A DNA stretch of 64,000 bases, from the NCBI GenBank assembly GCA_963789335.1, contig CAWBKH010000002.1, positions 985,355-1,049,354 on the forward strand, read 5' to 3'. The translations under genes and the position numbers were made by a program. This DNA is from an uncultured Verrucomicrobiae bacterium (GTDB lineage Bacteria; Verrucomicrobiota; Verrucomicrobiia; Limisphaerales; UBA11358). This document shows, piece after piece, positions 426 to 42,167 of the stretch (the stretch's first letter is position 1; every line of letters begins with the position of its first letter). A model generated the notes under the pieces. That model had not been told where the DNA came from. It saw only the letters and a list, made by a program, of their open reading frames with translations, and ran no database searches.

Positions 426-2246
426 ATGATTAACAAACGTTGGTTCAAACAACTTCCCGATATCGGCGAGGAAGCAAGTTTCCTCCGCAAATGGGGATTT
501 ATCGGCATATTAGTCGGCATCGGCGCGGGAGTGGGAGCTTTGGCGTTGATTTGGTTGATCCAACTGATTTCCCACTATCTGCTCGGCAATCTGGTCGGTT
601 ACACGCCACCGGCGCCGGGCGGCGAAGGCGGCGCTGGCCAATATGTTTTTAAAATGACCCGGCCCTGGCTGCTGCCGTTGATCACGGGCGCGTCCGGTTT
701 GGTCAGCGGTTTTCTTGTCTGGAAATTTGCCCCGGAAACGGCGGGCATCGGCACCAATGCAGCCATCCGCGCGTTTCATGCCAATGAGAAAATCAAGCTC
801 CGGACCTCGCTCTTCAAACTGGTCACCTCCGCCATCACCATCGGGGGCGGTTTGACGTCCGGGCGCGAAGGTCCCGTGGCGCAAATCGGGGCCGCGACCG
901 GCGCCTGCATCGCTGACGCCCTCAAGCTCACGGTACGGGAACGCAACATCGCGCTGGCGGCGGGACTGGGGGCAGGCATCGCTGCGATTTTCAAGGCGCC
1001 GCTGGCCGGTGCCATCATTGGCGCGGAGATTTTTTACACCGAGGATTTCGAGGTGGAAGCGCTGGTGCCGGGTCTGATTGCCTCGGTGATTGGTTACACC
1101 ATTGTTGGCTCGGTCATGGGATTTCAGCCCATCTTCAACCCGCCCGCCGAAATGATGCAATTCGATCATCCCTGGTCGCTGGTCTTGTTTGCCCTGTTGG
1201 GCGTGGGCTGTGCCCTGCTGGCAAGGTTTTTGTTCGGCTTTTATTTTCGCACCGAACGCTTTTTCAAGCGGTTTCCCTTGTGGCTCGCGACCACCATCGG
1301 CGGCGTTTGCACGGGTGTGATTGGTCTGGCGATTCCGTCCGTGATCGGGACCGGATACGGCTGGGCGCAATTCGCCATCACTCAGAACACCGTCTTGCTG
1401 CCGCCGCTCATGTTGTTCCTGGCGGCGTTCGCTGAAATCATTGGCGCTTCGTTGACGCTGGGTTCGGGCAATTCCGGCGGCGTATTCGGCCCCAGCGTGG
1501 TGACGGGCGGAATGTTCGGCGGCGCCTTCGGCTGCGCGGTGGTTCACTTCTTTCCGTCGCTGCACGCGCATGTTGGCGACTTTGCCATCGTGGGCATGGT
1601 GGCGTTTTTTGCCGCCGCCGCCAAGGCGCCGATTTCCACCATCATTATGATTTCGGAAATGACCGGCGGTTATGCGCTTCTGGCGCCGGCCATGTTTGCG
1701 GTCGTTACGGCTTTTATCCTGTCGGGCAAGCGCACGATTTTTCCGGCCCAAGTCCACAGCCGGATTGATTCGCCCTTTCACGCTGATGAATTTGAGCCGA
1801 TTGTTCTTCACCACGTCAAGACCAGCGACGTTATGATTCATCTGCCGGTTTGCCTTAATATCAACACCTCCGTCGCCGATGCCATCAGTTTGATGGGCGA
1901 TTATGGTCTCAGCGGATTGCCCGTGGTGGAGCAGCACAAGTTATGCGGCCGCGTGACCTTGCTGGCGTCCCATCGGGTCCCGGAAGAAAAACGGCAGAGC
2001 GTCCAGATCAGGGAGATCATGACCTCCGAGTTGTATCGGGCCTACCCGGATGAAGACCTGTTCACCATCCTCAAACGGTTTGCGGCCCACGATGTCGGCC
2101 ATCTCCCGGTGGTGACACGGAAACGACCGGATTATCCCGTTGGCTTGATTACCCGTTCCGGACTCTGGACGGCTCTGGAAACCGCCAGGGAACTGCGTGC
2201 TGCGCGGAAGGAAAGGGCGGATGCAACGCAGGGAATAATTTCGTAA
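426..2246 (+). CDS. ClC-family voltage-gated chloride channel with C-terminal CBS pair
   Basis: 606-aa ORF, multi-pass membrane protein. ClC selectivity motifs GREGP and GSGNSGGVFGPS are present. The C-terminal roughly 140 aa look like a CBS-domain pair. Confidence 0.9.
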   Translation: MINKRWFKQLPDIGEEASFLRKWGFIGILVGIGAGVGALALIWLIQLISHYLLGNLVGYTPPAPGGEGGAGQYVFKMTRPWLLPLITGASGLVSGFLVWKFAPETAGIGTNAAIRAFHANEKIKLRTSLFKLVTSAITIGGGLTSGREGPVAQIGAATGACIADALKLTVRERNIALAAGLGAGIAAIFKAPLAGAIIGAEIFYTEDFEVEALVPGLIASVIGYTIVGSVMGFQPIFNPPAEMMQFDHPWSLVLFALLGVGCALLARFLFGFYFRTERFFKRFPLWLATTIGGVCTGVIGLAIPSVIGTGYGWAQFAITQNTVLLPPLMLFLAAFAEIIGASLTLGSGNSGGVFGPSVVTGGMFGGAFGCAVVHFFPSLHAHVGDFAIVGMVAFFAAAAKAPISTIIMISEMTGGYALLAPAMFAVVTAFILSGKRTIFPAQVHSRIDSPFHADEFEPIVLHHVKTSDVMIHLPVCLNINTSVADAISLMGDYGLSGLPVVEQHKLCGRVTLLASHRVPEEKRQSVQIREIMTSELYRAYPDEDLFTILKRFAAHDVGHLPVVTRKRPDYPVGLITRSGLWTALETARELRAARKERADATQGIIS

Positions 2247-19219: not shown

Positions 19220-19412
19220 GATTGTAACATTTCTGCCCCACCGTTGTATTCAAAATCAGTGTAAAAGCATCAGAATTACCTTGGCCACCGCGCTGAACTT
19301 CCGCGGAAGGCTGATGACACCTTCACTGGCGGGCGCGACACCGCCGCGCCGGACGCCCGCGCAGATTCCATTTGAGCAAAACCGTCGGAACCGGTATTTT
19401 GGGCGTTGCCTT

Positions 19413-19489
19413 GCGCGCGTAGCTCAATTGGATAGAGCGTCGGCCTCCGGAGCCGAAGGTTGTGGGTTCGACCCCCGCCGCGCGTACCA
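19413..19489 (+). tRNA. tRNA-Arg (anticodon CCG), CCA encoded
   Basis: Manual cloverleaf: acceptor GCGCGCG/CGCGCGT, D arm GCTC-AATTGGATA-GAGC, anticodon arm TCGGC-CTCCGGA-GCCGA, variable loop AGGTT, T arm GTGGG-TTCGACC-CCCGC, discriminator A, then CCA. Confidence 0.9.
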
Positions 19490-39656: not shown

Positions 39657-40693
39657 GCCGTGGCGGCCGCGCGAACCATGACATTGGAGGCCGGGTTGGC
39701 AACCACCCTTGCCTCCTTGACGGGAGGCTGGGCTTTTTCGAGAAATTGCCCGTGGGCGCGGAATTTTTCGTAACGCTTTTTCAACCGCTCGGTGATTGGC
39801 AGCGCCAGGGTTTTCTCAAGATGTTTGAGCAAATGCCCCTTCAAATTTTCCGCGGTGGCCGCCAGATCCGTGTGCGCGCCGCCGAGCGGTTCGGGCACGA
39901 TTTCGTCCACGAGTTTGAGTTCGAGCAAATCCTTGGCGGTGATTTTGAGGGCGGCGGCGGCCCTGGCGGCGTTCGCCCGATCTTTCCACAAAATCGCGGC
40001 GCAACCCTCGGGACTGATGACCGAATAATAGGCGTTCTCCAAAATCAGCACGCTGTCGGCCACCCCGATGCCGAGCGCGCCGCCGGAGCCGCCTTCGCCG
40101 ATGACGGCGGCGATGATGGGCACTTCAAAGAGCGTCATTTCGCGGAGGTTGACGGCGATGGCCTCGGCGATGTGGCGTTCTTCCGCGCCAATGCCGGGAT
40201 ACGCGCCCGCCGTGTCAATGAGCGTGATGATGGGCAGGCCGAATTTGTTCGCCAGCCGCATCAGACGGAGCGCCTTGCGGTAGCCTTCGGGATGGGCGGA
40301 GCCGAAATTGCGCAAAATGTTTTCCTTGGTATCCCGGCCTTTTTGCGTGCCCACGACAACGACGCGATGGTCGCCCAATTTAGCAAAGCCGCCAACCATG
40401 GCGCGATCCTCGGCAAAGAGGCGGTCGCCGTGCAGTTCGTGAAAATCGGAAAAGGTCGTTGCCAGGTAATCCAGCGTGTAAGGACGCTTGGGGTGCCGTG
40501 CCACTTGCACGCGCTGCCACGCGGTAAGGTTGGAGAAAATCTGCCGCCGGGTTTCTTCCAGCTTCTTTTCAATAAGCTGAATTTCCTCCTCAAAGTTGAC
40601 GCCCAGCGAATGCTTCTCCGGGTGTTCACGGAGGTCATCAAGCTTGCCCTGCAGTTCGATAATCGGTTTCTCGAAATCGAGCTGATGTTTCAT
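39653..40693 (-). CDS. accA: acetyl-CoA carboxylase carboxyltransferase alpha subunit
   Basis: MKHQLDFEKPIIELQGKLDDL is the canonical AccA N-terminus; DTAGAYPG and GEGGSGGALG are present. The ORF-track TTG at 40726 is probably upstream read-through. Confidence 0.9.
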   Translation of the reverse strand: MKHQLDFEKPIIELQGKLDDLREHPEKHSLGVNFEEEIQLIEKKLEETRRQIFSNLTAWQRVQVARHPKRPYTLDYLATTFSDFHELHGDRLFAEDRAMVGGFAKLGDHRVVVVGTQKGRDTKENILRNFGSAHPEGYRKALRLMRLANKFGLPIITLIDTAGAYPGIGAEERHIAEAIAVNLREMTLFEVPIIAAVIGEGGSGGALGIGVADSVLILENAYYSVISPEGCAAILWKDRANAARAAAALKITAKDLLELKLVDEIVPEPLGGAHTDLAATAENLKGHLLKHLEKTLALPITERLKKRYEKFRAHGQFLEKAQPPVKEARVVANPASNVMVRAAATA

Positions 40694-40744
40694 GTGTCCG
40701 AAAACTATATCTTTTTGGCCTGACAATCAATGGCGAATTCCGTA

Positions 40745-40931
40745 AATGCGAAAGGCCGGACTTTCGTCCGGCCTCCGCGGTGACGAGGCTTATACGCCTT
40801 CACCCAGGCGCTCAGAAGGGTGACGCGGCCAACTTGGGGTCGCTGTTCGAGCCGCGCCACGAGCAAAACCTCTATGCCAACCCTAAACGAACAGCGAAAT
40901 CTTCATTCGTCACTGATTAATGGACGCGGAG
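40745..40931 (-). ncRNA. candidate structured leader/sRNA upstream of accA (three-helix fold plus intrinsic terminator)
   Basis: Promoter-like TTGAAT-16 nt-TATGTT at 40960-40933. P1 is CTCCGCG..GTGACGA pairing with TCGTCACCGCGGAG. P2 is CGCTGTTCG/CGAACAGCG (9-10 bp). P3 is TCACCC/GGGTGA. The terminator is AGGCCGGAC GAAA GTCCGGCCT followed by TTCGCATTT. Confidence 0.4.
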
Positions 40932-40956
40932 TAACATAAAACGGTTCAAAAAAAAT

Positions 40957-41703
40957 TCAAATTATTTTACCAGCCTCAATTTGGCTGAAAATCCACGTTT
41001 TTTGGCGTAATTGAATGACCCGGCCCAAAGGTGTTTTACCTGAAAAATCGAGCGACTCGCGGAGGGCCTTTTCCTTGCCCGCGCCTGAAATCAGGACCCA
41101 AACCTGTTTTGCCGCCGCAATGGCGGCGTAACTCAACGAAATGCGCCGGGGCGGCGGCTTGGGCGAATTGTCAACCGCTAGAAAGGGGGCTGTACAATGG
41201 ACGATTTCCGCCGGAGCGTCCGGAAACAGCGAAGCCACATGGCCATCTTCGCCCATGCCGAGAAAAATCAAATCCAGAATCGGCCAGCCGGCTTGGTCGG
41301 AGGGTGCGATTTGGCGAAGTTCCGACTCGGCATTTTTCACGGCGTCTGCAGGCGAATCTTCGCCGTGAACTCGGTGAATCTGATTTTCAGGGACTTTCAG
41401 TGGTGCGAACAATAGTTCGCTGGCCATCTTGAAGTTGCTTTCCGGATCATCTGGCGGCACGCAGCGTTCGTCCGCCCAGAAAAAATGCACGTGGGCGAAC
41501 GAAACCGTGCGCACCTCGGCCTGTTCGACGACCGATGCGAAAAATGTTCGCGTGATGCGCCCGCCGGACAAGGCGACACAATGCGATTTGCCCGCACGAT
41601 GGGCCGTTTCAATTTCATCCAGCCACGAGCTGGCGGCTACGCGAGCCAGTTCGTCGGCAGCGGCGAAGGAAAACAGTTCAAAGTTATTTCTGGGCGAGGT
41701 CAT
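40957..41703 (-). CDS. pgl: 6-phosphogluconolactonase
   Basis: HCVALSGGRITRTFF and FFWADERCVPPDDPESN. The ATG at 41703 gives an ATGA overlap with the upstream gene (ORF track start 41718). Confidence 0.85.
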   Translation of the reverse strand: MTSPRNNFELFSFAAADELARVAASSWLDEIETAHRAGKSHCVALSGGRITRTFFASVVEQAEVRTVSFAHVHFFWADERCVPPDDPESNFKMASELLFAPLKVPENQIHRVHGEDSPADAVKNAESELRQIAPSDQAGWPILDLIFLGMGEDGHVASLFPDAPAEIVHCTAPFLAVDNSPKPPPRRISLSYAAIAAAKQVWVLISGAGKEKALRESLDFSGKTPLGRVIQLRQKTWIFSQIEAGKII

Positions 41704-42167
41704 GGTGGGCTGGGGCAAACGACAAGCGCCGTTTTAATTGAATTGGCGATATAACACTGCTCGTGCGCCAGATGATGCAACTGTTCTTGGTCAGCGGGCG
41801 TGGGTAATTTCCCGCCGCCAAAAGCTATCTTTGGATTGAGTTTGACCAAACTGACCCAAGACACACCTTTTTCGTTTTTGGCCATTACGCCAACCGCCTC
41901 ATCGTCATAGCTGTCAACCTGGAATCCGGACTTGGAGGCCAGATGGAGAAACGTAAGCATGTGACAACTCGAAATCGCCGCCACAAAAGCTTCCTCCGGA
42001 TCGACATGTGCCGGATTCGAGTAGGGGACGGGCACAACGAACGGCGAAGGAGACGCCGGAACGGTGAAGCCGCCATCAAATACCCAGGTGTGCTCCCGCG
42101 AATACCTGCCCTTGAGAAACTCCGGGCTGGTTCGGCGCCATTTGATCGTTGCCTTGTGTTCAGACAC
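41700..42167 (-). CDS. OsmC/Ohr-family protein
   Basis: 155 aa. EEAFVAAISSCHMLTFLHLA and the C-terminal HEQCYIANS are typical of the OsmC fold with two Cys. Confidence 0.75.
   Translation of the reverse strand: MSEHKATIKWRRTSPEFLKGRYSREHTWVFDGGFTVPASPSPFVVPVPYSNPAHVDPEEAFVAAISSCHMLTFLHLASKSGFQVDSYDDEAVGVMAKNEKGVSWVSLVKLNPKIAFGGGKLPTPADQEQLHHLAHEQCYIANSIKTALVVCPSPP

Follow-up and report, generated by a model that had tools for sequence, protein, structure and literature searches.

The small RNAs (sRNAs) MicA, RybB, and MicL of enterobacteria depend on sigma-E and share a compact layout: each is a short unit with a GAAC...TC-type promoter like those of extracytoplasmic function (ECF) sigma factors, an A/T-rich region upstream of it, and an intrinsic terminator. 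For MicL, the sigma-E promoter lies at the 3' end of cutC. In a 64,000-nucleotide (nt) stretch of DNA from an uncultured Verrucomicrobiae bacterium, referred to here as the window, a unit of similar layout was found on the minus strand in the spacer between pgl and accA. It consists of an ECF-like promoter, a structured RNA, and an intrinsic terminator, and like MicL it is located at the 3' end of a co-oriented operon with no intervening terminator. This locus is probably an autonomous gene for a trans-acting small RNA of about 170 nt, reaching from about position 40913 to 40744 of the window on the minus strand.

The resemblance to the sigma-E-dependent sRNAs of enterobacteria, which are among the subjects of PMC1804206, concerns the layout. 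MicA, RybB, and MicL have no sequence relation to this RNA (Rfam was negative) and are simply structured, Hfq-dependent sRNAs that act by seed pairing, whereas the RNA described here has a three-way junction, two pseudoknots, and no evident free seed. Transcriptional riboswitches also place a complex, covarying junction-pseudoknot domain directly before an intrinsic terminator, in most cases ahead of a metabolic gene, but here the downstream gene has its own promoter, the context is inconstant and sometimes convergent, and no known aptamer class matches. Lineage-restricted orphan structured RNAs are similar in being confined to one bacterial clade and metagenomes and in combining a stand-alone promoter and terminator with an elaborate covarying structure; one CMfinder-type survey contains orphan RNA motifs named after phyla (PMC1950547). 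The present RNA differs from them in being outside Rfam 15 and in carrying an ECF-like promoter and signs of an integration site. 6S RNA is of similar length and has its own promoter and terminator, but the RNA here does not form a long rod with a central bubble, and the Rfam 6S models do not match it. The closest systems in layout would thus be the sigma-E-dependent sRNAs, especially MicL, with the likeness of the promoters judged by sequence alone, and the closest in character are the orphan structured RNAs. By sequence, the RNA belongs to neither group.

The sequence-only reading, made earlier from the letters of this DNA, had proposed a promoter-to-terminator structured RNA at this place. 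Such an RNA exists, with a covarying fold, a conserved promoter, and a terminator. The strings quoted in that reading were all present where it had placed them, and its gene names (pgl, accA, manA, and others) were right by Pfam. It had recognized no known riboswitch class, and no known RNA class was found for this element in the window or in 12 homologous loci. With Rfam 15 (4227 models) at gathering thresholds, no family matched the RNA in the whole window; the sole match in the window was a tRNA (19413-19486, plus strand). At E <= 10, the spacer and the 12 diverse homologous loci gave only three to six scattered chance matches, none of which was recurrent. No tRNA or tmRNA gene was detected by ARAGORN in 40500-41200. 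In the literature, no published RNA of this kind for Verrucomicrobia and no accA riboswitch candidate was found.

Homologues were detected by two routes. Among the 80 best AccA loci, taken from one genome per species, the same element was located directly upstream of accA in three Verrucomicrobiota metagenome-assembled genomes (L001, L002, and L004), whose AccA identities were 90, 84, and 78%. The DNA identity of the RNA core was 94, 89, and 77%, respectively, and the flanks were not conserved. Covariance models, first from 4 and then from 84 sequences, detected no such RNA at the other 77 AccA loci, among them Verrucomicrobiota relatives whose AccA identity reaches 78%. In JGI/ENA metagenome contigs, the invariant 18-mer CGCTGTTCGTTTAGGGTT had at least 120 matching stretches, from which 80 loci were retrieved. 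The element was present in 80/80 of these loci and full length in 69, with scores of 109-200 bits. The RNA of the window scored 201 bits with model R1 and 191.5 bits with model R2, and it occurs once in the 64 kb. Conservation in the RNA core was far above that of the flanks. Judged from these searches, the family is abundant in the metagenomes searched and phylogenetically narrow. Verrucomicrobiota are abundant in soils and peat. At locus L092 (273-422) the RNA is present up to ~83 nt, helix B included, and then gives way to unrelated sequence; the copy is truncated, perhaps at a rearrangement breakpoint within the gene. The extents in the window are as follows.

40913-40744, minus strand: predicted transcript of ~170 nt, with its start placed 5-6 nt past the -10 element and its end in the U-tract
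40900-40753, minus strand: conserved RNA core

The fold was examined in an alignment of 74 full-length copies (72 distinct), which were re-aligned to a model with nested helices only; the pairs were counted afterwards on the structure written with pseudoknots. Among the 72 distinct sequences, standard pairs were present in 99.6% of 3216 cells, and compensatory changes occurred at 22/45 pairs. In 500 shuffles, none reached any of five measures, and when the partners were slid by 1-3 columns as a register control, only 33-49% were paired. The fold supported by this covariation is a three-way junction closed by helix D with B and C as arms. It is joined by two pseudoknots: helix A, in which the 5' tail pairs with the loop of B, and helix E, in which the loop of C pairs with the 3' tail.

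40896-40888, minus strand: 5' strand of helix A, CGCTGTTCG, in the 5' tail; 100% paired
40849-40841, minus strand: 3' strand of helix A, CGAACAGCG, inside the loop of B; compensatory changes at 0/9 pairs
40872-40867, minus strand: 5' strand of helix D, GAGGTT, closing the three-way junction; compensatory changes at 4/6 pairs
40860-40851, minus strand: 5' strand of helix B, GTGGCGCGGC, 10 bp; 99.7% paired
40829-40820, minus strand: 3' strand of helix B, GCCGCGTCAC, junction arm
40811-40794, minus strand: hairpin C, GCGCCT, loop GGGTGA, AGGCGT; compensatory changes at 1/6 pairs
40804-40800, minus strand: 5' strand of helix E, GGTGA, in the loop of C; compensatory changes at 3/5 pairs
40790-40785, minus strand: 3' strand of helix D, AGCCTC; 98.8% paired
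40783-40779, minus strand: 3' strand of helix E, TCACC, in the 3' tail past helix D; 99.7% paired

Helix B was the best-supported helix, with compensatory changes at 7-10 of its 10 pairs in two alignments. Its core is the GC-only pairing CGCGGC/GCCGCG, which the sequence-only reading had listed as an alternative. In helix D, GAGGTT/AACCTC was replaced by GAGGCT/AGCCTC, AAGGTC/GACCTT, and GGGATT/AATCTC, and in helix E, GGTGA/TCACC was replaced by AGTGA/TCACT, GATGA/TCATC, and GGCGA/TCGCT. The loop-closing pair of hairpin C covaried (UA 56, CG 7, GC 5), and its remaining pairs were nearly invariant. In helix A, all 27 one-sided changes fell on the 3' strand and kept the pairing (A to G opposite U, C to U opposite G). 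The loop lengths of this helix (27-28 nt, 1 nt, and 11-13 nt) would suit an H-type pseudoknot. The sequence-only reading had drawn CGCTGTTCG/CGAACAGCG as a hairpin of 9-10 bp, of which 9 bp were retained as helix A. Model R1 (alignment A4) was built without helices A, D, and E, and model R2 (alignment A5) without A and E, indicating that the support for these helices is not an alignment artefact. The alignment contained more than 150 G-U cells, which on the other strand are A-C mismatches; this fixes the RNA strand as the minus strand. The unpaired junction strands (GUUUAGGGUUGGCAUA, UUGCUC, CCCUUCUGA, and AUAA) were almost invariant, in contrast to helix B and the terminator, which drift freely.

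Other pairings fared less well. The proposed closing helix, CTCCGCG plus GTGACGA with TCGTCAC-CGCGGAG, reached -11.1 kcal/mol (z = -2.3) in the window, but across 71 homologues its mean z was +0.11, no better than shuffles, and half of it precedes the predicted start of transcription. The proposed hairpin TCACCC/GGGTGA was paired in 83% of cells, with 73 unpaired cells, a value that 332/500 shuffles also reached; GGTGA pairs with the downstream TCACC instead, and the upstream TCAC is part of helix B. The general proposal of a three-way junction followed by an intrinsic terminator was right in both elements and mostly wrong in the helices assigned to the junction. A mini-hairpin GAG/CTC, used in R1, was replaced by helix D, which covaries. 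An outer helix, GAUUUC/GGAAUUC, which RNAalifold drew across the terminator from four sequences, was rejected; GGAATTC belongs to the accA promoter block and moves with accA.

The region folded better than shuffled sequence. The 263-nt spacer had z = -3.15 against dinucleotide shuffles, and the predicted 170-nt transcript had z = -3.70 against shuffles. Folding energy alone decides little, however, because the opposite strand also scored z = -2.9. A small protein gene was excluded by indels of 1-2 nt among the homologues and by the short open reading frames (ORFs) not being conserved; no conserved ORF was found in the RNA among the homologues.

The promoter of the RNA in the window starts 8 nt past the stop codon of pgl and has the following elements.

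40949-40944, minus strand: -35-like element TTGAAC (TTTGAAC in the family, nearly invariant, with an A-rich stretch before it)
40926-40920, minus strand: -10-like element CGTCCAT (in the family [C/T][G/A]TCT[A/G][T/A]), 19 nt past GAAC; not of the TAnnnT type

In the family, the promoter motif is TTTGAAC-N19-TCTAT, found in 70/78 distinct upstream sequences, where TGAAC is located mostly 41-51 nt ahead of the conserved AUUUCG block at the 5' end. The T and C at +24/+25 from TGAAC carried 1.2-1.3 bits, and upstream positions -9 to -6 were A-rich. In the 1.17 Mb of sequence searched, the full motif occurred 73 times, 69 of them in front of the RNA; the 4 matches elsewhere were at about chance level, and no other members of a promoter regulon were identified among them. 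The promoter TTGAAT-16-TATGTT, which the sequence-only reading had chosen, was not conserved; the conserved motif is TTGAAC ... TCCAT instead.

The accA gene and the tRNA at 19413 have promoters of another type, TTGnnn-N15-17-TAnnnT. The region upstream of the tRNA (19370-19410) contains a sigma-70-like TTGAGC-N17-TATTTT, which served as a housekeeping promoter from the same DNA for comparison. The E. coli sigma-E consensus consists of GGAACTT, a spacer of 16 nt (15-19), and TCAAA, with an A/T-rich UP element and a 5-6-nt discriminator (PMC1312014). In the GGAACTT/TCAAA convention, the spacing of the RNA promoter is 17 nt, within the 15-19 range of E. coli sigma-E. The RNA promoter thus resembles sigma-E/ECF promoters as far as the E. 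coli consensus serves for comparison, and by this analogy transcription is predicted to start near 40913.

The 3' end of the unit is marked by the terminator that had been recognized in the sequence-only reading.

40774-40744, minus strand: intrinsic terminator, AGGCCGGAC GAAA GTCCGGCCT followed by TTCGCATTT; 9-bp GC-rich stem with a GNRA loop
40774-40766 and 40761-40753, minus strand: the two strands of the terminator stem

The stem covaried at 7-9 of 9 pairs in two alignments. A U-rich tail was present in the homologues, many of which have longer T runs than the window. The terminator scan found none in the window between the pgl stop codon and the RNA. The linker between fold and terminator is variable, and no conserved antiterminator pairing was seen in it by inspection, with no dedicated computation run.

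Immediately past this terminator, accA appears to have its own sigma-70-like promoter.

40741-40704, minus strand: accA promoter block GGAATTC-N4-TTGATT-N15-TATAGT, outside the RNA and 10 nt before the accA ATG

The block stayed with accA when extra DNA intervened between the RNA and accA (loci L091, L103, L129, L144, L099, L086, L093, L137, and L098), and a related AATTC..TTGC..TAnnnT block was located ahead of accA in relatives without the RNA. The distance of 10 nt from the ATG indicates that the accA mRNA would be almost leaderless and lack a Shine-Dalgarno sequence. The AATTC part of the block, kept in relatives without the RNA, might be a binding site for a regulator.

The gene order on the minus strand of the window is zwf, an OsmC-like gene, pgl, the 263-nt spacer, accA, and a gene for a type-I phosphomannose isomerase; Pfam supported the identity of each of the five genes.

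43847-42186, minus strand: zwf (ORF and Pfam)
42167-41700, minus strand: gene for an OsmC-like protein (ORF and Pfam)
41718-40957, minus strand: pgl (ORF and Pfam), with its stop codon at 40959-40957
40693, minus strand: ATG of accA (ORF and Pfam)

The longest pgl ORF begins with TTG at 41718 and shares 19 nt (41700-41718) with the end of the osmC-like ORF, so that the true start of pgl may be further downstream. Antisense to accA is an ORF of 325 amino acids (39746-40723, plus strand), probably a shadow ORF.

The neighbours of the RNA change among the homologues. At the ~63 loci where the downstream flank measured 400 nt or more, accA was located downstream in ~47 and absent in ~16. The next genes at the latter included rpoD, a tyrosine integrase gene, and a gene for an NAD-binding protein, all three convergent and confirmed by Pfam, as well as a convergent aminotransferase-like gene, thrC, and a fabG-like gene. 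At L126 (1692-3759), rpoD, the gene of the primary sigma factor, is convergent with the RNA; at L118, the RNA (1847-2010, minus strand) is followed by thrC (threonine synthase) on the same strand. Upstream, zwf, osmC, or pgl was present in ~70% of contexts, and the remainder had unrelated or divergent genes. Across all of these changing contexts the promoter, fold, and terminator stayed intact. Since the three are kept together while the neighbours change, the unit behaves as an autonomous gene. The independent sRNA, which the sequence-only reading had offered as one of two options, fits both the conserved promoter and the changing contexts.

In three loci, the 3' end of the RNA resembles an attachment site used by integrative elements. 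At L090 (8880-9851) and L145, a convergent tyrosine integrase gene (PF00589) has its stop codon ~12 nt past the RNA terminator. At L136, a repeat of the final 71 nt of the RNA, 92% identical, is located ~790 nt downstream (264-422 and 1053-1197, in the orientation of the RNA). Site-specific integration typically leaves such a pattern at tRNA and tmRNA genes, where the integrase gene likewise abuts the 3' end of the RNA gene and a direct repeat of that end lies downstream. The RNA itself is unlike tRNA and tmRNA in having no ARAGORN match and no acceptor or T-arm arrangement in its fold. The integration signature fits a stable, conserved RNA gene.

In the proposed explanation, an ECF (sigma-E-like) sigma factor would read the RNA promoter, and the RNA would be induced under stress. 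Transcripts of zwf-osmC-pgl would also end at the RNA terminator, because no terminator is present between the pgl stop codon and the RNA, and accA would be transcribed separately from the sigma-70-like promoter just past the terminator. The RNA would act in trans, with its folded core binding a protein or a small ligand, and would be neither a cis switch nor a simple seed-pairing sRNA; this mode of action is suggested by a rigid and conserved tertiary core, by the conserved nucleotides being those of the junction strands, not a free seed, and by the fact that no conserved antiterminator was seen.

The alternative that most directly concerns accA is a transcriptional riboswitch or leader, in which a metabolite bound to the junction-pseudoknot domain gates termination at 40774-40744 and thereby read-through into accA-manA. 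The layout of the locus is like that of an aptamer followed by a terminator, the domain is conserved and covarying in the manner of ligand-binding RNAs, its junction nucleotides are very strongly conserved, and accA follows within ~45 nt on the same strand in most contexts; in one context the downstream gene is fabG-like, likewise belonging to fatty-acid synthesis. Nevertheless, accA has a promoter block past the terminator; the block follows accA and is also found in relatives without the RNA. Where accA is missing, in several cases with convergent genes in its place, the terminator and promoter persist unchanged, and the 77 other accA loci have no RNA upstream. Inspection of the variable linker also revealed no conserved antiterminator pairing. 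The RNA is probably not a switch of accA, a riboswitch is improbable here, and the option of a leader for accA-manA in the sequence-only reading is not supported. A second alternative is that the element belongs to the 3' untranslated region (UTR) of zwf-osmC-pgl and serves mainly as a terminator, a stabilizer, or a source of a processed sRNA, with no role as an independent gene. One of these genes is directly upstream and co-oriented in most contexts, the link survives in 6 loci without accA, and no terminator separates the pgl stop codon (40957) from the RNA. We consider this unlikely, though less remote than a riboswitch: a dedicated promoter is conserved between pgl and the RNA in 70 of the 78 sequences, the ~30% of contexts with unrelated or divergent upstream genes keep promoter, fold, and terminator, and a plain terminator needs no 120-nt double-pseudoknot core with invariant junctions. 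The sequence-only reading had named as its own refutation a mere 3' UTR and terminator next to a separate accA promoter near ~40740-40700; the separate promoter is found there, but the RNA carries a conserved promoter of its own.

A catalytic RNA, either a self-cleaving ribozyme or a core with a chemical rather than a binding role, would also account for a double pseudoknot with nearly invariant junction strands. Architectures of this kind are seen in glmS and HDV-like ribozymes. However, no Rfam 15 ribozyme family matched even at E <= 10, the order of the helix strands differs from that of the HDV fold, the core positions of the hammerhead were not recognized on inspection, and nothing in the genomic context points to a mobile element or to required processing, so that this explanation is very unlikely. 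Hammerhead, HDV, and twister were compared by eye, and none fitted. Chance structure or a non-functional repeat would agree with single-sequence folding that is weak by itself (z of about -3 to -3.7 on either strand), but it is hardly credible in view of 84 homologous sequences, the compensatory pairs, a core conserved far above its flanks, and a single copy in the window.

Several observations weigh against an autonomous, trans-acting RNA gene as described above. Helix A is without two-sided covariation; its 5' strand was included in the search pattern, which left it no room to vary. The assignment of the promoter to a sigma factor is drawn only from resemblance; the -10 element reads TCCAT here, and a single occurrence of the motif in the window compares with 0.84 expected by chance. 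The U-tract of the window, TTCGCATTT, is interrupted and was missed by a simple terminator scan that required at least 5 T in 8. The start, end, and autonomy of the transcript are inferred from the sequence, and binding through the folded core from the architecture of the RNA. Furthermore, accA is still within ~45 nt on the same strand in ~75% of contexts, and at L149 (2376-3328) a gene for a FabG-like 3-oxoacyl-ACP reductase follows on the same strand 154 nt past the RNA. The RNA may thus also contribute in cis by read-through, or be linked in function to fatty-acid synthesis.

The neighbouring genes make NADPH (zwf and pgl) and malonyl-CoA (accA), and fabG occurs once; a role of the RNA in lipid or envelope homeostasis under stress is on this ground a possible, speculative one. 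A more far-reaching version would make it a new class of trans-acting sensor or catalytic RNA, induced by an ECF sigma factor and with a double-pseudoknot core that binds a metabolite or protein or performs chemistry, that ties envelope or oxidative stress to the supply of NADPH and malonyl-CoA for lipids. This version, which covers zwf-pgl (NADPH), accA and fabG (malonyl-CoA and lipid synthesis), and the Verrucomicrobiota of environmental metagenomes, is doubtful.

To our knowledge, new orphan RNAs are not rare. The family described here is new, well supported, and widespread, with an unusually elaborate fold and a unit delimited from promoter to terminator, which makes it suitable for Rfam-style curation and for experiments. 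It also serves as a warning for annotation, in that a structure and a terminator ahead of a metabolic gene are insufficient for calling a riboswitch. From the integration signs at its 3' end, the RNA seems to be handled by mobile elements in the way that tRNA genes are. The phylum lacks genetic model systems, and the ECF-like promoter may offer a testable link to a stress regulon in it.

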